From: a bacterium
Lineage (GTDB): Bacteria; CLD3; SB21
Assembly: GCA_013360215.1 (NCBI GenBank)
Contig: JABWCP010000002.1
Coordinates: 62,001-126,000, forward strand
DNA length: 64,000 bases
Direction: 5' to 3'
Part shown: in pieces, positions 2,287 through 48,385 of the stretch
How positions within the stretch are numbered: the stretch's first letter is position 1
Layout of the letters: each line of letters begins with the position of its first letter
The notes under the pieces: generated by a model
What the model was told of the DNA's origin: nothing
Seen by the model: the letters and a program-made list of their open reading frames with translations, nothing else
Databases searched by the model: none
Translations under genes and position numbers: made by a program

Positions 2287-4017
2287 TTAACTTTTCCATA
2301 GAATTTCATACACAGTTACCGGCTCCGCAACACCTTTGAGCGTAACGCGTTCGATCGGCGAGGCGATACTTTTGTTAGGCAAAAGATCATACGTGGACTG
2401 ACTGACGATGATCTGTCCGGCTTTAGCGACGCTGCACAAGCGATTGGCAATGTTGACGGTTTCACCGATCACGGTATATTCAAGGCGTTTATTGGAGCCG
2501 ATATTGCCTACAACGACTTCGCCGGTATTGATGCCGATACCGATATTGATCGGAGGATGTCCCTCGAGTTTGCGTTGAAAATTGAATTTCTCAGCTGCAC
2601 GTTGCATCTGTACGGCGGCATTGATAGCGCGCATATAAAAATCATCGTAGTGAACCGGCGCTCCGTAAAAAGCCATAATGGCATCGCCGATAAATTTATC
2701 CAACGTACCACCATAACTGTCAATAATGTCTATCATTTCATCAAAGTGCGAATTCAGTAAATTAATAAGTTCCTGAGGGTCCATACCGCGCGACATCGGC
2801 GTAAATCCGCGGATGTCGGTAAACATGACGCTGAGTCGGTTCTTTTCGCCTTTGAGAATACCATCAACGGATTGTTCGGACAGAACTTTTTTGGCAACGT
2901 CAGGGGAAAGATATTTACCAAAAAGATTTTCGACACGTTCTTTTTGCTTGAGACCCTGCGTCATCTCATTAAAATTTTTACCCAGCTCACCGAACTCATC
3001 GCGTGATTTGATCTGCAACATGATATTGAGATCGCCGGATTGTACTTTGTGCATAGCGTCGGAAAGCTGATGTACAGGCTTGGTCACGCCGCTGATAATT
3101 GCCAAAGCGATCATAAAAGCTAAAATGGAAACTCCGCCACCGACAAAAACCATCGTACGCTGCGAAGCGACAAGCGGCTCTAAGGCTTTGTCGAGTGAAC
3201 TAAAAAAAACATACGTCGCAATAACCGGGCGATCCTGACCCTGGCTTCCCGTAGCTGCAAAAACGGGATGAGCTACAGCCAAATAACGCTCACCATGAAT
3301 CGTAAACTGAAAAGGATCGCTTGAGGTTTTACGAATCATCGCCTGATCTAAAAAACTTTGGGATGATTTGAATTGGGCGAGAAGTTCGTTTCGATTTTCA
3401 AACTTATCCGTTGCAACGATTTTCCCGTTGATAATAAAGGCAATGGAACTTGTGGTAACTTTAGCGATTTTGGTTGCTACGGTATCCGTCACATCATATC
3501 CCAAAACGATGCCGCCAAGAACTTGATTATTGACGATCGTAGGAGAAGCCGCCACACGGAGAAGTTTACCATTCTCTTCCCAAAAACCACCGTTATCATA
3601 TCCTTCGAGTGCAGCGGCGACTTCAGGGCGCTGTGAAAGATTCATACTCGCGCTCAGTTCCGTGCCGACAAACGCCAATACCTGGCCGGACGGGCTCAAT
3701 GCGACAAATATATCGGATTTGAATTCGCCAATCTGATTGGTTTCTTCCAGCGCTTGTTGTACTGTTTTTTGGTCGCCCGTACTAAGTTGTGCAGCGAACT
3801 TGGGATTATCTGAAACGCTACGGCTCTGGAGTATCAATTGTTCGAAATAGCTGTTATTAAACTCTTCATAGGTGCCGTTACTTTTGATTAGCCGATCGGT
3901 AATATCGGTTTCGATATTTTTAGCCAAACCGAGCGAAACGATGACGTACGCAACGGCCGCCAACGTCAAGGTCACAGTTACGAGAAAAATCAGCTTGTAA
4001 CGGAATTTGATAATCAT
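2287..4017 (-). CDS. Membrane class III adenylate/guanylate cyclase (periplasmic Cache-like sensor, HAMP)
   Basis: FTDIRGFT, LDKFIGDAIMA, GIGINTG, YTVIGETVNIANRL; HAMP DEFGEL; two TM segments. Confidence 0.92.
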   Translation of the reverse strand: MIIKFRYKLIFLVTVTLTLAAVAYVIVSLGLAKNIETDITDRLIKSNGTYEEFNNSYFEQLILQSRSVSDNPKFAAQLSTGDQKTVQQALEETNQIGEFKSDIFVALSPSGQVLAFVGTELSASMNLSQRPEVAAALEGYDNGGFWEENGKLLRVAASPTIVNNQVLGGIVLGYDVTDTVATKIAKVTTSSIAFIINGKIVATDKFENRNELLAQFKSSQSFLDQAMIRKTSSDPFQFTIHGERYLAVAHPVFAATGSQGQDRPVIATYVFFSSLDKALEPLVASQRTMVFVGGGVSILAFMIALAIISGVTKPVHQLSDAMHKVQSGDLNIMLQIKSRDEFGELGKNFNEMTQGLKQKERVENLFGKYLSPDVAKKVLSEQSVDGILKGEKNRLSVMFTDIRGFTPMSRGMDPQELINLLNSHFDEMIDIIDSYGGTLDKFIGDAIMAFYGAPVHYDDFYMRAINAAVQMQRAAEKFNFQRKLEGHPPINIGIGINTGEVVVGNIGSNKRLEYTVIGETVNIANRLCSVAKAGQIIVSQSTYDLLPNKSIASPIERVTLKGVAEPVTVYEILWKS

Positions 4018-42841: not shown

Positions 42842-43594
42842 ATGAAAATAAAACTGTTTAAATCTATGGATACTCCCGTTGCACTTGTTACAGGCTCTGG
42901 TAAAAGGTTGGGCCGAAAAATAGCATTGGCTTTAGCTGAAACCGGCTACGATATCATTGTCAATTATCATCAGTCCGTTGCCGATGCCCGTAAAACAGAA
43001 AAACTTATACGTCAAATGGGACGCAAAACGGTGTTGATCAAAGCGGATGTTCGACGTCCGGATCACATAAAAAAAATGTTCAATGAAGTGATTAAGAAAT
43101 TCGGTAAAATTGATGTTCTGATCAATAACGCTGCGATTTTTCCCAAAAAAACCGAACTCCCAAATATCCCCGAATCTATATGGGATGATGTGATTGACTC
43201 GAATCTTAAATCAAGTTTTTTGTGTGCGCAAGAAGCTGCAAAATACATGCTACGCCAAAAATCCGGCAAAATAATTAACATCGCATCGTTAGGCGCATTT
43301 TTATCGTGGAAAAACTACATCCCATATAATGTATCTAAAGCCGGCGTAGTTATGCTAACGCGCAGCTTGGCTAAGGCTTTGGCGCCATATATCACTGTCA
43401 ATGCTGTCGCGCCCGGTACGATCATAGTCCCGGGAGAAGAGGTGTTGTCTGAACATTTACCGACAATGGATCGTATTCCTATGAAAAAATACGGCAAACC
43501 AGCCGATATCACGGCCGCAGTTTTATTCCTACTGCAAAGCGAATACATCACCGGTCAGATCATTGGTGTGGATGGAGGGGCTACAATTCCATAA
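42842..43594 (+). CDS. Short-chain dehydrogenase/reductase (pteridine reductase/FolM-like)
   Basis: TGSGKRLG, NNAA, YNVSK, VNAVAPG. Confidence 0.9.
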   Translation: MKIKLFKSMDTPVALVTGSGKRLGRKIALALAETGYDIIVNYHQSVADARKTEKLIRQMGRKTVLIKADVRRPDHIKKMFNEVIKKFGKIDVLINNAAIFPKKTELPNIPESIWDDVIDSNLKSSFLCAQEAAKYMLRQKSGKIINIASLGAFLSWKNYIPYNVSKAGVVMLTRSLAKALAPYITVNAVAPGTIIVPGEEVLSEHLPTMDRIPMKKYGKPADITAAVLFLLQSEYITGQIIGVDGGATIP

Positions 43595-43637
43595 TACGTG
43601 AGCCGTTCAAAGAAAAAAATTAAAAGGTAAAATTTTA

Positions 43638-43665
43638 TTGATTTTTATTTATAATTCTATATATT
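43638..43665 (+). promoter_or_regulatory. Putative promoter of the split host tRNA
   Basis: TTGATT-16 nt-TATATT (also reads TAnnTTTG), just upstream of 43680. Confidence 0.45.
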
Positions 43666-43679
43666 TGCGACCGGATTTT

Positions 43680-43716
43680 GCCACAATAGCTCAGCGGTAG
43701 AGCAGCTGTTTCGTAA
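43680..43716 (+). pseudogene. 5' half of interrupted tRNA-Thr(CGU)
   Basis: GCCACAA TA GCTC AGCGGTA GAGC A GCTGT TTCGTAA: acceptor 5' strand, D arm, anticodon stem 5' strand and loop. Confidence 0.92.
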
Positions 43717-43736
43717 CCGGCTGCTTTTTTTCTTTT
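43701..43736 (+). terminator. Terminator-like hairpin at the left junction of the insert
   Basis: AGCAGCTG-TTTCGTAAC-CGGCTGCT (8 bp with one G-U) followed by TTTTTTTCTTTT. Confidence 0.6.
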
Positions 43737-44136
43737 ACACCAATAATTAGAAGTAGTTATAATACTAAGTTCACTTGACAGGCGATTTAGCTGATAAGTG
43801 ATATTAGTAATAGTTGTGTTTTTTATTATTTTATTGTGTTAAGTTTGACACAGTTGATTAATATCAACATAAGATATGTCAACGTTTTGTTTTGAATCTT
43901 TTTACAATAATATAATGTGAAGGTGGATAAGGAAAGGGGTATTTCAAAAGATATTTCAATTTATATAATAAGATTTCTACGACCTTGTTTTTTTTATGCT
44001 TGCGCGCGTAAAAAAGAGTATCCCTGAATTAGTTGGAACATGGCACGTCAAAAACACATTGACAGTCAAGTCAAAAAGCAGGGATCATGTATAATGAACC
44101 TAATAGTTTCTCGTTTTTTGTAATAATGAGAAAATC

Positions 44137-44544
44137 ATGAAACAGTTATTTGTCTTTTCTATATTGGCTCTCACATCATGTGAAATTCAAAAAGAGCAAC
44201 AAACTTGTTTAAACGAAAATCATACAAGAAAACTTCATGCTACTGTATGGCGCGAACAGAACAATTCAATGTATGTCGTCTTTCATGAGAATGGATTTCG
44301 TTATGATGTTTATTTTTCAATCGAACCGCCAGTAGGTGAATGCTATAAAGTTCGTACTGCAAAATATACTGAGGGAGACGGGATTGTCCGGATAGGTGAC
44401 GTTGATTATATCTATACGCTCAAAGGCGACACACTACGACGCTACTTACAAGCAAGCTCTTTGATACTACAGGAAGTACTAATCGTAACAACAGTATCGT
44501 TTGACACACTTACTTACTGCCTTGGAAGCGAGAATCCGTTTTAA
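44137..44544 (+). CDS. Hypothetical lipoprotein (cargo of the tRNA insert)
   Basis: MKQLFVFSILALTSC lipobox; 135 aa; no family recognised. Confidence 0.65.
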   Translation: MKQLFVFSILALTSCEIQKEQQTCLNENHTRKLHATVWREQNNSMYVVFHENGFRYDVYFSIEPPVGECYKVRTAKYTEGDGIVRIGDVDYIYTLKGDTLRRYLQASSLILQEVLIVTTVSFDTLTYCLGSENPF

Positions 44545-44569
44545 ACATGGTTATATTAAACGTGAGGAT

Positions 44570-44645
44570 TGGAGCCGATGATCAGGATCGAACTGATGAC
44601 CTTTTGATTACGAATCAAACGCTCTACCAACTGAGCTACATCGGC
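44570..44645 (-). tRNA. tRNA-Thr(CGU), intact with encoded CCA, inside the insert
   Basis: GCCGATG TA GCTC AGTTGGTA GAGC G TTTGA TTCGTAA TCAAA AGGTC ATCAG TTCGATC CTGAT CATCGGC T CCA; all four stems pair; 76 nt. Confidence 0.97.
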
Positions 44646-44661
44646 CAAAAAAATGCGCGTA

Positions 44662-44690
44662 ATTATAACTAATTTTAATTATATTTTCAA
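44662..44690 (-). promoter_or_regulatory. Near-consensus sigma70 promoter for the insert tRNA
   Basis: Minus strand TTGAAA-17 nt-TATAAT, 16 nt upstream of the tRNA, followed by a GC-rich CGCGC discriminator-like segment. Confidence 0.8.
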
Positions 44691-44815
44691 GCCTAAAATA
44701 TGTTGTTTTTTGTAAGTTTAAAGTGATAAGTAAACTGATCAGTGCTGTTAAGTAAAAAGTTCTTTTAAATTATTGTTTTATTAGCGATTAGGTAAGTGGG
44801 GTTACTGTTTCGTAA

Positions 44816-44850
44816 ACAGCAGGTCGCAGGTTCGAATCCCGCTTGTGGCT
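44816..44850 (+). pseudogene. 3' half of interrupted tRNA-Thr(CGU)
   Basis: ACAGC AGGTC GCAGG TTCGAAT CCCGC TTGTGGC T; ACAGC pairs with GCTGT and TTGTGGC with GCCACAA of the 5' half; one A-C mismatch in the T stem; no encoded CCA. Confidence 0.92.
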
Positions 44851-44854
44851 CTTC

Positions 44855-44889
44855 AAAACCTGATCATCATGTGATCAGGTTTTCTTTTT
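44855..44889 (+). terminator. Terminator of the original host tRNA gene
   Basis: AAAACCTGATCA-TCATG-TGATCAGGTTTT then CTTTTT. Confidence 0.85.
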
Positions 44890-45034
44890 AGCTCTCACTT
44901 ATCACGCTAATTAGCTTTTTACAAAACACCTCGTTCCAAATCCCATTTAAGGTTAATTCAAATTTTCTTGAATAAACCTTTATTTGCATTTATCTTTACA
45001 TCACTTTTCCTTTCCAAATAATATATACCCATTT

Positions 45035-46516
45035 ATGAACACAAGTGATGCCATTCAGTTTTATAACGTATTGGTAAAAAATCACGAACGGCGCATTCAA
45101 ACCGTTTTTGAAAAACATCTGAAGCAATGCGCAAAGGAAAAACTGACCTTTGGCGGGCGGCATATGTACAGTTTCCTGAGACCCAATTTTATTACACTGG
45201 AACAATACCGTTATATCCAATACGTTTGCAAGATACTTCGTAATGCCGTTACGAAATTTAAAAATGCCGCGCTCGAAAATCCAATCATCATGGAACAAGC
45301 CGGTCTTTTAGATAGGGAACGCGAACTCGTAATGATGGACCCGGGATATGACAGACTATCGATCACCGCCCGATGGGATTCATTTATGGCCGGCGACGAA
45401 TTAAAGTTCGTGGAGCTTAATGCCGAATGCCCTGCAGGGATTGCTTATTCCGATATTGCAGCCAAGGTGTATGATAGGTTACCGATGATACGCGAATTCA
45501 AAAAACACTATAACGTTGAAAAATTCGCCATCCGTCAGGAATTACTGAACGGATTATTATCTACGTACGCCGTTTGGCGAGGAAACAAAAAGAACAAGAA
45601 GCCACGCATCGCCATAGTAGACTGGAGAGAAGTACCGACATTTACCGAGTTTCAACTTTTTAAGGAATTTTTTAAATCTAAAAAATTAGACTGTATTATC
45701 GTAGATCCGCGTGATCTGACGTATGAAAAAGGTCGCCTCATGGCTGGAAAAAAGGAAATAGATCTGGTTTATAAGCGGATATTGACCAACGACTGTGTTG
45801 AAAAACCGGAGGAAACAAAAGCCTTAGTGCAAGCGTACTGCGATCAAAACGTATGTATGATCAATCCTTTTCGGGCTAAGCTTGTTCACAAAAAATCAAT
45901 GTTCGCTGTTTTGACCCATGAAAAAAATCAAAACCTTTTTAATGGTGAAGAGCTTTCAGTCGTACTCAAACATATCCCATGGACTCGAATGCTCCGTGAT
46001 GAAATCACATACTTTAACGGGAAACAGATTGATCTTTTTGACTACGTATCTACACATAAAAACAATTTCGTCATAAAGCCCAATGATGAGTACGGAGGAA
46101 AAGGGGTTTGTTTAGGAATGGAAGCTACCGACCAGCAGTGGAGCGCTGTGCTCCACGAGGCAAAAAACGGGGAGCACTATGTAGTGCAGGAGCTTGTAAA
46201 AATACCCAAACAACCTTTTCCAACAGTTATCAATGGTAATTTAGAGTTTGTTGATATGGTTGTTGATATGGATCCGTATGCATTCGGTCCGAATGTTGAA
46301 GGTATATTGACACGGTTATCGGCATCTTCACTAGCAAATGTTACTGCTGGCGGGGGTACAACCCCGACTTTTGTTATTACTAAAAAAACAAAAAAAGCAA
46401 AAAAAACTTTTAAAATTAAGGCGAGTAGAGTCAAATCCAAACAAAAGCCTAAATCAAGTTATTTAAAAACAAACATTAAAAAGACTAAAAAGAGCACTAC
46501 TATAAAAAAGGCGTAA
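45035..46516 (+). CDS. Circularly permuted ATP-grasp / glutathionylspermidine-synthase-like ligase with Lys-rich tail
   Basis: Likely start ATG 45035; ARWDSF, FVELNAECPAG, VIKPNDEYGGKGV, VVQE, LANVTAGGG. Confidence 0.75.
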   Translation: MNTSDAIQFYNVLVKNHERRIQTVFEKHLKQCAKEKLTFGGRHMYSFLRPNFITLEQYRYIQYVCKILRNAVTKFKNAALENPIIMEQAGLLDRERELVMMDPGYDRLSITARWDSFMAGDELKFVELNAECPAGIAYSDIAAKVYDRLPMIREFKKHYNVEKFAIRQELLNGLLSTYAVWRGNKKNKKPRIAIVDWREVPTFTEFQLFKEFFKSKKLDCIIVDPRDLTYEKGRLMAGKKEIDLVYKRILTNDCVEKPEETKALVQAYCDQNVCMINPFRAKLVHKKSMFAVLTHEKNQNLFNGEELSVVLKHIPWTRMLRDEITYFNGKQIDLFDYVSTHKNNFVIKPNDEYGGKGVCLGMEATDQQWSAVLHEAKNGEHYVVQELVKIPKQPFPTVINGNLEFVDMVVDMDPYAFGPNVEGILTRLSASSLANVTAGGGTTPTFVITKKTKKAKKTFKIKASRVKSKQKPKSSYLKTNIKKTKKSTTIKKA

Positions 46517-46548: not shown

Positions 46549-47673
46549 ATGTTTAATAATATGAATAACCCCGCTTTCACGATAGGAATTGAAGAAGAAT
46601 TTCAAACTGTAGACCCTGAAACGCGTGAATTGCGTTCTCATGTCAGTGGTCAAATGATCGAGGAAGGTAAATTACTTCTTTCCGAGCAGATCAAAATGGA
46701 AATGCATCAGTCCGTAGTAGAAGTTGGAACGAACATTTGTCAAAACATAGCTGAAGCAAAGGCTGATGTTATAAAGCTGCGTCGTACCATCCATGAACTT
46801 GCCACCAAACGGGGGCTTGGTATCGTTGCTGCCAGTACACACCCGTTTAGTGATTGGAAAACTCAACCCATTACGGAGCATGAACGGTATAAAGAGATAG
46901 TCGAAAACATGGGGGATGTGGCACGTGCCAATCTAATTTTCGGATTACACGTTCATATAGGCATGCCGGATAATGAATCGTGCATTGCGATTCAAAACCA
47001 AATAAGATACTTTTTACCTCATATTTTAGCACTTTCGACAAGTTCACCGTTTTGGATCGGTCGAAGTACTGGCTTAAGCTCGATCAGGACCCAAATTTTT
47101 AGGCGTTTTCCACGAACTGATATCCCACCGATTTTCGACTCATGGTCAGATTTTGAAGATTATGTAAACCTCTTAATTCAAACGAAATGCATTGATAACG
47201 GCAAAAGAATTTGGTGGGATGCACGACCTCATCCGAGCTTTGGAACTTTGGAAGTTAGGATTTGCGATTTGCCTACGCGCGTAGATGAAACGATAGCAAT
47301 TGCGGCTTTGATACAAGCGCTAATGCATACATTATACAGAACTTATAAGAAAAATATGTCCTGGCGCATCTATCCCAATCAATTGATATCAGAAAATAAA
47401 TGGAGGGCAAGTAGGTACGGGTTACATGGTAAATTGATTGACTTTGGTAAAAAAGAAGAAGTACCGACAAAAGAACTAATTTATGAACTAATTCGTTTTG
47501 TAGATGATTCTGTCGAAGAACTTGGAAGTCGCAATGAAATTAACTATATTTATAAAATTTTAGACGGTGGCACCAGTTCTGATCGGCAGTTGGCCGTGTA
47601 CGAACAGTCCGGCAGGGACTTAAAAGCCGTTGTAGATTTTCTATTACGCGATACTTTGGAAGGCTTGTATTGA
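46549..47673 (+). CDS. ybdK: YbdK-family carboxylate-amine ligase (glutamate-cysteine ligase 2)
   Basis: FTIGIEEEFQ, STHPF, FGLHVHIG, SSPFW, WWDARPHP..GTLEVRICD, ENKWRA.RYG. Confidence 0.9.
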   Translation: MFNNMNNPAFTIGIEEEFQTVDPETRELRSHVSGQMIEEGKLLLSEQIKMEMHQSVVEVGTNICQNIAEAKADVIKLRRTIHELATKRGLGIVAASTHPFSDWKTQPITEHERYKEIVENMGDVARANLIFGLHVHIGMPDNESCIAIQNQIRYFLPHILALSTSSPFWIGRSTGLSSIRTQIFRRFPRTDIPPIFDSWSDFEDYVNLLIQTKCIDNGKRIWWDARPHPSFGTLEVRICDLPTRVDETIAIAALIQALMHTLYRTYKKNMSWRIYPNQLISENKWRASRYGLHGKLIDFGKKEEVPTKELIYELIRFVDDSVEELGSRNEINYIYKILDGGTSSDRQLAVYEQSGRDLKAVVDFLLRDTLEGLY

Positions 47674-47722
47674 CAATTTTTTTCATAAAATAATATCAAC
47701 TTATTAAATAATTGGAGGTTAT

Positions 47723-48385
47723 ATGGGTATTTTCACACGTATGGCGGATATCGTAAAAGCCAACATCAATGACTTTTTGGACAAGGCCGAAGATCCTGAA
47801 AAAATGATCAAACAAATGGTCATCGAAATGGAAGAAGCAGTAAATAAGGCTACAACAGCCGTTGGAACAGCTATCGCTAATCAAAAAAGACTCGAAAAAC
47901 AGTTCAATGAAAACAAAAAGCTGGCCGATGAATGGCAAAACAAGGCTGTTCAGGCGGTTAATGCCGGACGCGATGATTTGGCTTCACAGGCTTTGGCAAA
48001 GAAAAACTCGTATGCGACGGCTGCCGCTTCTTTAGAGCCGACGTTACAACAAGCTACGGCTACAGCCGAACAAATGAAGACACAGTTGCAACAATTAAAA
48101 GCTAAACTTGACGAAGCTCGTGTCAAACAAAACACCTTGATAGCTCGCCACCAAGCTGCAAAAGCTAAAAAAATGATTGCTCAACAAATGTCTGGCATCG
48201 GCGGCGGCGCTTTTGGCAACTTCGATAAGTTTGAGAAAAAGGTTGAAGATGTCGAAGCGGAAGCAGATGCGCATGTTGAACTTTCAGGACAAAATACAAG
48301 TCTAGATGATGAATTTAAAAAGCTATCAACAGATACCACAGTTGATTCTGAATTAGCCGCTTTGAAAGCTCAATTAGGTAAATAA
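47723..48385 (+). CDS. pspA: PspA/IM30 family protein
   Basis: MGIFTRMADIVKANIN..LDKAEDPEKM; coiled coil; VDSELAALKA. Confidence 0.92.
   Translation: MGIFTRMADIVKANINDFLDKAEDPEKMIKQMVIEMEEAVNKATTAVGTAIANQKRLEKQFNENKKLADEWQNKAVQAVNAGRDDLASQALAKKNSYATAAASLEPTLQQATATAEQMKTQLQQLKAKLDEARVKQNTLIARHQAAKAKKMIAQQMSGIGGGAFGNFDKFEKKVEDVEAEADAHVELSGQNTSLDDEFKKLSTDTTVDSELAALKAQLGK

Follow-up and report, generated by a model that had tools for sequence, protein, structure and literature searches.

How does a bacterium come to keep a threonine transfer RNA (tRNA) gene between the two halves of another tRNA gene with the same anticodon? The question is raised by positions 43,680 to 44,889 of the window, the 64 kb of one contig (JABWCP010000002.1) analysed here, which belongs to a bacterial assembly of 3.72 Mb in 56 contigs with 44.8% G+C; the public sequencing runs that contain this stretch are activated-sludge metagenomes. 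A tRNA-Thr(CGU) gene is interrupted there in its anticodon loop by an insert of 1099 bp, and the insert carries a complete tRNA-Thr(CGU) gene, the inner tRNA, on the opposite strand. An initial annotation of the window had read the insert either as a minimal tRNA-replacement element or as the remnant of a larger one. Our analysis supports this pair of readings and leans towards the second: we consider it somewhat probable that the insert is a deletion relic of an element of the type known from tRNA-dependent lysogeny, retained through its tRNA.

The interrupted gene is the native tRNA-Thr(CGU) gene

ARAGORN reports one tRNA only in the window, the inner tRNA-Thr(cgt). After in-silico deletion of 43717-44815 it calls a 73-nt tRNA-Thr(cgt) from the segments on either side, 43680-43716 and 44816-44850, which the initial annotation had already joined into a cloverleaf. 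The interrupted gene and its borders are composed as follows.

43660..43667, + strand: promoter-like TATATTTG of the host tRNA gene (motif match upstream of the same tRNA in relatives)
43680..43716, + strand: 5' half of the host tRNA-Thr(CGU) gene, with the acceptor 5' strand, the D arm, and the 5' strand and loop of the anticodon arm; 100% identical to intact orthologues
43706..43716, + strand: left 11-bp direct repeat (common core, putative left attachment site attL), from repeat analysis
43717..44815, no strand: insert, 1099 bp
44805..44815, + strand: right 11-bp direct repeat (common core, putative right attachment site attR), from repeat analysis
44816..44850, + strand: 3' half of the host tRNA-Thr(CGU) gene, with the anticodon stem 3' strand, variable loop, T arm, acceptor 3' strand and discriminator; 95-100% identity with intact orthologues
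44855..44883, + strand: host terminator hairpin and T run, 3' of the 3' half (terminator scan, 13 pairs; RNAfold -16.0 kcal/mol)

For comparison, 40 related genomes were searched at the DNA level and the loci of 15 relatives were analysed. All 15 hold an intact tRNA-Thr(cgt) of the split-gene type, and the insert is absent from every one of them. The rejoined halves are identical at 72/72 bases to the intact tRNA-Thr(CGU) of G008 and G009, which belong to two other genera, and differ by a single base from each of 10 further relatives. The host-type tRNA has one A.C mismatch in its T stem; the same mismatch is found in the relatives and is therefore native and not a mark of decay. Together, the segments 43680-43716 and 44816-44850 make up the native tRNA-Thr(CGU) gene of this family, one half each. 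The initial annotation had allowed for the inner tRNA being the ancestral gene; in the relatives it is the sequence of the split gene that stands intact, not the inner tRNA, and the locus of a sister genus (G004) is free of the insert. This comparison of sequences identifies the split gene as the once intact ancestral gene and the inner tRNA as not ancestral.

The signals around the gene are kept as well. The downstream terminator named by the annotation was recovered by the scan at 44855-44883, and a similar hairpin lies 3' of the tRNA in G004. For the upstream promoter the agreement is partial: the motif TATATTTG is present on the + strand and matched in relatives, several of which have a TAT-rich motif of this kind (TATATTTG, TATCTTTG; TAnnTTTG-like) upstream of the orthologous tRNA, while its function as a promoter at 43660-43667 is something we presume from a Bacteroidota-type promoter pattern.

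An 11-bp repeat in the anticodon loop marks both junctions

The 11-mer CTGTTTCGTAA, reported in the annotation as duplicated, lies at both borders of the insert, at 43706-43716 and 44805-44815, and the similarity of the borders extends to 14/16 positions. It occurs six times in the 3.72-Mb genome, the two border copies included. The repeat spans the 7-nt anticodon loop and 4 nt of the stem, a position that we take to be a classic tyrosine-integrase crossover site; Williams reportedly distinguished sublocation classes of integrases in 2002, with the anticodon loop and its symmetric flanking stem as one such site. Neither ARAGORN nor Rfam finds a tRNA rebuilt at either junction, in keeping with the claim that the insert does not restore its target. 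An 11-bp core is too short to rebuild the tRNA at either end, and the host gene was therefore destroyed.

The left junction has a further feature that bears on the fate of the 5' half.

43699..43731, + strand: terminator-like hairpin spanning the left junction, followed by a T run (10-pair stem, 9-nt loop; RNAfold -13.1 kcal/mol for 43696-43735)

In this hairpin the host strand of the D arm and anticodon stem pairs with sequence of the element. The terminator scan had a loop limit of 8 and so missed it. The hairpin would terminate transcripts that start from the orphaned promoter of the host tRNA.

These junctions bear on the idea that the interrupted gene still works, either with the insert behaving like an intron or with the halves joined in trans as in Archaea. 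The halves, the promoter-like motif and the terminator are undamaged, and the break lies in the anticodon loop, where the group I introns of bacteria sit. We nevertheless give this explanation almost no credence, since no Rfam intron family matches the insert at E up to 1, an 11-bp duplication marks recombination of DNA and not an intron, a terminator-like hairpin follows directly on the 5' half, and a tRNA with the same anticodon on the other strand of the insert would be redundant; a young insertion is explanation enough for the missing decay. In the archaeal split tRNAs of Nanoarchaeum the halves are transcribed separately and joined by the splicing endonuclease with the help of complementary leaders. 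The locus resembles them in having two separate halves and a break near the anticodon loop, but neither complementary leaders nor the machinery are evident, and the hairpin after the 5' half is a further difference.

Two other candidates were tried and rejected. A group I intron is incompatible with the absence of an Rfam match to the insert at the threshold just given and with the presence of the 11-bp duplication. A DDE transposon or miniature inverted-repeat transposable element with an 11-bp target duplication was set aside for lack of terminal inverted repeats; the nearest inverted-repeat arms start 20 and 27 nt in from the left end and stop 35 and 133 nt before the right end.

The repeat could also have arisen by illegitimate insertion, in which circular foreign DNA entered at a chance 11-bp match without a site-specific recombinase and its same-anticodon tRNA supplied the microhomology. 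The inner tRNA has the 7-nt loop TTCGTAA, a sequence common to all Thr(CGU) anticodon loops, so that any DNA bearing a tRNA-Thr(CGU) inherently resembles the target, and the insert has no integrase. The bounding repeat, however, is not the anticodon loop of the inner tRNA, which lies about 190 bp inside the insert and on the other strand. The element carried a separate copy of the 11-mer, with the extended 14/16 likeness, as the core of a phage-type attachment site (attP) would, and in its place and length this core agrees with that of a documented integrase system. We regard a microhomology origin as improbable.

The inner tRNA is the only tRNA-Thr(CGU) of the genome

The annotation had described a complete 76-nt CGU tRNA on the opposite strand, and ARAGORN places it exactly there.

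44570..44645, - strand: inner intact tRNA-Thr(CGU), 76 nt, CCA encoded (ARAGORN; Rfam tRNA, 73.8 bits)

Every stem of this tRNA is paired. Among the 46 tRNA genes of the 56-contig assembly it is the sole one for Thr(CGU), which gives the genome-wide count that the annotation had asked for. Aligned with the host-type tRNA it shares 54/76 positions, and the acceptor, anticodon and T stems differ, as the annotation had it; in its acceptor stem, and in encoding CCA, it departs from the gene native to the family. From its sequence, the inner tRNA is clearly not native.

Its closest counterparts lie elsewhere. In its own phylum (20 species genomes) the best match is 82-83%, to tRNA-Ala(CGC) genes. 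Of the 261 small genomes in the phylum of G024, 181 have a match to the inner tRNA at E 1e-12 or better, and the top 12 loci, which were inspected, are all tRNA-Thr(cgt) genes with the acceptor stem of the inner tRNA and an encoded CCA, the best being 90% identical. Exact searches with two words from the inner tRNA (35 and 33 nt) gave no match in 185,579 species genomes, nor did the 35-nt word in IMG/VR. This type of tRNA seems widespread among bacteria, and no donor can therefore be named.

The regions upstream of these genes were also compared. In the bacterium's own phylum a Bacteroidota-like TAnnTTTG motif stands upstream of tRNAs, and the promoter-like site of the inner tRNA is of the sigma-70 type. 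The 12 inspected upstream regions of tRNA-Thr(CGU) genes in the G024 phylum show no TAnnTTTG-like motif and look sigma-70-like by eye.

The cognate codon of the inner tRNA, ACG, is the commonest threonine codon: across 1538 long open reading frames (ORFs) it accounts for 36% of threonine codons, at a frequency of 22 per 1000 codons.

Contents of the insert

The insert has 33.3% G+C against 44.8% for the genome and is single-copy. Compared by blastn with its own genome, it matches itself and shows a weak likeness to tRNAs only; nothing there resembles its ends. Its sequence marks it as foreign DNA. Besides the inner tRNA it contains the following features.

43734..43763, + strand: sigma-70-like promoter match, facing inward (TTTACA, 18 nt, TATAAT; 11/12 matches), overlapping the left inverted-repeat arm
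43743..43763 and 44662..44682, no strand: left and right arms of a 21-nt inverted repeat, 19/21 complementary
44137..44544, + strand: orphan lipoprotein ORF, 135 amino acids (aa), with signal peptide and lipobox-like LTSC
44662..44690, - strand: sigma-70-like promoter match, facing inward (TTGAAA, 17 nt, TATAAT; 11/12 matches), about 17 nt upstream of the inner tRNA and enclosing the right inverted-repeat arm

Complementarity of 19/21 was reached by 1/100 dinucleotide shuffles of the insert. Once the lipoprotein gene and the tRNA are taken away, about 0.6 kb is left, with no ORF longer than 41 aa, and the 41-aa frame overlaps the tRNA. No integrase was found: the lipoprotein belongs to no Pfam family, and the six small ORFs of the insert have no Pfam match at E up to 1. 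Phage genes are likewise absent (no PHROG family below E 0.1), as is any conjugation gene or recognisable gene fragment, and Rfam at E up to 1 returns the inner tRNA only.

The 373 nt between the left promoter-like site and the lipoprotein gene (43764-44136) fold better than 100/100 shuffles (z = -3.4) and have no Rfam match; the segment could be a leader, a small RNA or a decayed coding sequence.

The lipoprotein has a narrow record. It has no Pfam or PHROG family, and its one close homologue among 5.8 billion proteins, P0002, is 83% identical and encoded on a 47.6-kb contig. A library of 1.84 billion representatives returned, besides P0002, only two weak hits, repeat proteins whose Pfam matches say little, and neither IMG/VR nor the metagenomes of the Joint Genome Institute (JGI) contain relatives. 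The exact sequence (P0001) is on record from 7 contigs, the longest of 604 kb. Its threonine codons are ACA or ACT in 11/12 cases, against the 36% of ACG in the genome. The AlphaFold model has a mean predicted local distance difference test score (pLDDT) of 37; as a lead only, Atlas points to Lipocalin_4 clusters, and the protein is possibly lipocalin-like.

The insertion in other samples

Contigs of four runs from four other studies were aligned to 43000-45500, with the proviso that contigs miss rare forms. Those that reach the junctions are these.

Run X9, 43329-43811: zero differences, bridges the left junction
Run X3, 44754-44959: bridges the right junction
Run X3, 43700-44639 in one piece: reaches only 17 letters past the junction on its left, and so does not count as a bridge
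Run X5, 44511-44994: bridges the right junction
Run X13, 43176-43716: 6 differences, then 9 unlike letters; ends at the insert's left border
Run X13, 44805-45500: 4 differences, with 9 unlike letters before; starts at the right border of the insert

Both junctions, for which the annotation had wanted read support, are thus crossed by independent contigs from three other studies, one on the left and two on the right. They bear on another explanation, that the split is a chimera or mis-join of metagenome assembly at tRNA sequence shared between organisms. The genome is in 56 contigs and the runs are metagenomes; tRNA sequences shared between organisms break assembly graphs, and depth spikes over parts of the tRNA. 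Against this stand the contig of X9 across the left junction and those of X3 and X5 across the right one, all from other studies, the single X3 piece covering 43700-44639, and the 7 contigs with the exact lipoprotein. An assembly artefact is very improbable.

Run X13 stands apart. It has no cover on 43756-44511; no single contig of it joins both sides, and no joint of an empty allele was reported. It probably represents a 99%-identical strain in which the tRNA is intact and free of the insert, an empty allele that would produce just this pattern. Runs X14-X18 contain a share of the sequence words (0.20-0.23) like that of X13, but do not count as evidence. Filled alleles occur in samples of four studies, with this probable empty allele in a fifth, and the insertion is probably polymorphic in nature. 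A 40-nt exact word from the leader and 5' half has no match in JGI metagenomes. No circular form or excision product appears among the aligned contigs, which cannot reveal rare forms.

Gene neighbourhood in relatives

The tRNA stands beside orthologues of one or both of the genes that flank it here in 12/15 loci; the other 3 belong to another family of the same order. The flanking genes are listed below.

42842..43594, + strand: short-chain dehydrogenase (SDR), left flank (Pfam adh_short_C2, E 7.8e-57); orthologue beside tRNA-Thr(CGU) in 8/15 loci
45026..46516, + strand: circularly permuted ATP-grasp protein, right flank (Pfam); orthologue beside the tRNA in 11/15 loci
46549..47673: GCS2-family glutamate-cysteine-ligase-like gene, after the ATP-grasp gene

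In 11/12 syntenic relatives the tRNA is coded on one strand and the SDR and ATP-grasp genes on the other, and two extra genes separate the tRNA from the ATP-grasp gene. G004 alone has the layout of the present genome (G000), with the intact tRNA on the same strand and directly upstream of the ATP-grasp gene, and with a similar promoter motif and terminator. Since G004 shares this layout and has an intact tRNA, the strand difference is an older rearrangement, separate from the insertion, and G004 serves as a model of the empty site.

The two extra genes form a conserved pair in most relatives, of about 127 aa (HEPN-like by eye) and about 334 aa, lying between tRNA-Thr(CGU) and the ATP-grasp gene. 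The pair is missing there in G000 and G004, where the tRNA is inverted, a lineage-specific rearrangement. Further right, 46549-48385 of the window holds the GCS2 gene and a PspA/IM30 gene, and the ATP-grasp and GCS2 pair is kept across the family.

In one relative, G003, the stretch 2960-3150 of locus L026 (contig C75) includes a partial second copy of tRNA-Thr(CGU), about 34 nt from the D arm through the anticodon arm and about 35 nt upstream of the intact gene. Ahead of this copy the leader is repeated, and an unrelated hairpin takes the place of the acceptor strand. The copy may be a scar of an earlier integration or excision at the same site in the anticodon arm; if so, tRNA-Thr(CGU) is a recurrent target in the family.

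Comparison with known tRNA-gene insertions

The nearest parallel is tRNA-dependent lysogeny, as the annotation had sensed in citing prophages that complement a lost tRNA of the same isotype. It is described for the actinobacteriophages Fionnbharth, LeBron, Gaia, Cain, BrutonGaster and others (Guerrero-Bustamante and Hatfull, mBio 2024, PMC10865867). According to the main text of that paper, recombination by a tyrosine integrase joins attP to a bacterial attachment site (attB) that lies in a tRNA gene of the host; the common core measures only 8-17 bp, the tRNA is left unrestored, and the phage makes up for the loss with a same-isotype tRNA. Among the att sites of mycobacteriophages, it says, cores that cover the anticodon loop are common (PMC10865867). 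The present site likewise overlaps a host tRNA gene, its 11-bp core falls within 8-17 bp, no tRNA is rebuilt, and the insert bears a same-anticodon tRNA of its own at 44570-44645. The junction anatomy fits point by point. The unit itself does not: it is 1.1 kb without integrase or phage gene, whereas each published example is an entire temperate phage, tens of kb long, that encodes a tyrosine integrase of its own. Those examples are from the Actinobacteria; the host here is from a phylum that is distant and small (20 species genomes).

Cases outside the Actinobacteria have been named. One likely example, given in the text of PMC10865867, is prophage Lj965 of Lactobacillus johnsonii, and in Sinorhizobium meliloti intact prophages like Lo5R7ANS are described as disrupting tRNA-Leu(UAG) and carrying a replacement (PMC11476347). 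As far as these accounts go, they share with our locus an insertion in the tRNA's middle portion, an inactivated host gene and a replacement tRNA closer to the genes of unrelated taxa; they differ in being intact prophages with integrases. Canonical tRNA-gene islands bring along the 3' part of the tRNA. As outlined in the description of Islander (PMC4383910), the island restores the disrupted tRNA gene and the displaced fragment lies at its far end. Insertion in a tRNA gene and a direct repeat at both ends are common to such islands and our insert; here, by contrast, the identity does not go beyond 11 bp, and the tRNA is restored at neither attL nor attR.

A unit this small seems not to have been described, as the annotation had suspected. 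The full-text literature searched, which leaves aside supplementary tables that might list small cases, describes no unit of about 1 kb that lacks an integrase. Neither 'remnant' nor 'cryptic' occurs in the main text of PMC10865867, and the smallest phage-related sequence in the survey of PMC11476347, as far as its text goes, measures 3.24 kb, although its supplementary tables may list smaller ones. Whole prophages of this kind are already known; what would be new is the smallest, integrase-less form, in a far-off phylum.

Origin of the insert

The course of events that we favour, with the moderate confidence stated at the outset, would begin with a circular foreign element that entered the host's one tRNA-Thr(CGU) gene at its anticodon loop, through site-specific recombination across the 11-bp core, most likely the work of a tyrosine integrase. 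The element's own tRNA-Thr(CGU) would then have taken over the decoding of ACG, and one or a few later deletions would have removed the integrase and all other genes of the element, leaving both junctions, some 0.4 kb of non-coding DNA, the lipoprotein gene and the tRNA. The inner tRNA would have been protected from loss, since no other tRNA gene in the assembly has its anticodon and no threonine codon is commoner than ACG. It would thus anchor the relic, and a foreign tRNA gene would have replaced the native one. We infer that an integrase made the insertion, that the element was once larger, and that the inner tRNA is expressed and charged.

Several observations weigh against this course of events. 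The insert holds no trace of a former larger element, whether integrase, phage or conjugation gene, or gene fragment. No parent element or relative of the insert turned up in its own genome, in 185,579 species genomes (searched with tRNA words), in IMG/VR or in JGI metagenomes, and blastn against phage (50,697 records) and plasmid records matches the tRNA part only. The insertion looks young, because the halves are unchanged and a 99%-identical strain probably lacks the insert, and it would have had little time to shrink to a tidy 1.1 kb. Wobble reading of ACG by tRNA-Thr(UGU) may also undercut the anchoring role of the inner tRNA.

Some of these points suit the other half of the annotation's proposal, that the insert is a whole mini-element, non-autonomous and already of its present size on entry, with a replacement tRNA and a cargo gene between two att ends. 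Its excision and insertion would depend on an integrase whose gene lies elsewhere, acting in trans, or in cis after accretion beside a related element, as in the cis-mobilizable elements (CIMEs) of streptococci. Both junctions are intact, the unit is compact and free of pseudogene debris, and the insertion is apparently recent and polymorphic. The diverged copy of the cargo on another contig (83% aa identity) gives the cargo a history outside this strain, the inverted repeat near both ends, 19/21 complementary and equalled by 1/100 shuffles, overlaps the two inward promoter-like sites, and the five tyrosine recombinases encoded by the genome could act in trans. The unit is, however, present once in the genome, where nothing else resembles its ends, and the collections searched yielded neither a related unit nor a matching integrase-bearing element. 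All five recombinase genes are on other contigs than the insert, and none (0/5) lies within 8 kb of a tRNA gene. The aligned contigs, which cannot show rare forms, include no circular or excised form. We hold the mini-element to be possible, if rather unlikely.

CIMEs are flanked by attL and attR, lack recombination and transfer genes, and are thought to derive from a larger integrative element by deletion. They are still movable by the integrase of a related element; their sites leave the target gene intact, and these att sites are shared with known integrative and conjugative elements. Our insert is like them in its flanking att-type direct repeats and its lack of integrase and transfer genes, and unlike them in that its target gene was destroyed and replaced. 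No related autonomous element was found by searches of its own genome, with tRNA words, with the cargo protein or by blastn against phages and plasmids, the att ends not having been queried in large collections.

ARAGORN called a second 'tRNA-Ala(cgc)' on another contig of G000 (C4:81386-81464), 12 kb from a 390-aa tyrosine recombinase gene (C4:93527-94012). Its sequence is unlike a normal tRNA, and the call is probably a false positive.

A bolder form of the mini-element idea is a selfish 'tRNA-swap cassette', moved in trans by the integrases of elements that target anticodon loops and kept by tRNA addiction, with the attL hairpin silencing the host promoter. This we think doubtful. Were it true, the cassette would destroy the host's only tRNA for its commonest threonine codon, supply a substitute and punish imprecise loss, and cassettes of this sort would offer foreign tRNA genes a general way of displacing native ones across phyla.

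Implications of a proposed tRNA-gene replacement

The junction anatomy of tRNA-dependent lysogeny now has a counterpart in a distant, little-known phylum of activated sludge. How widespread this lifestyle is was a question raised by the authors who described it, in the text of their paper (PMC10865867). For annotation, the locus means that a tRNA set can seem normal while the ancestral gene lies in two pieces around a presumably working one.

The locus may also illustrate a possible end state of such elements, in which only the tRNA, one cargo gene and two scars are left. If the insert is indeed a deletion relic, elements of this type would permanently swap a conserved native tRNA gene for a foreign one, and the replacement tRNA would shield the stub of the element from deletion.

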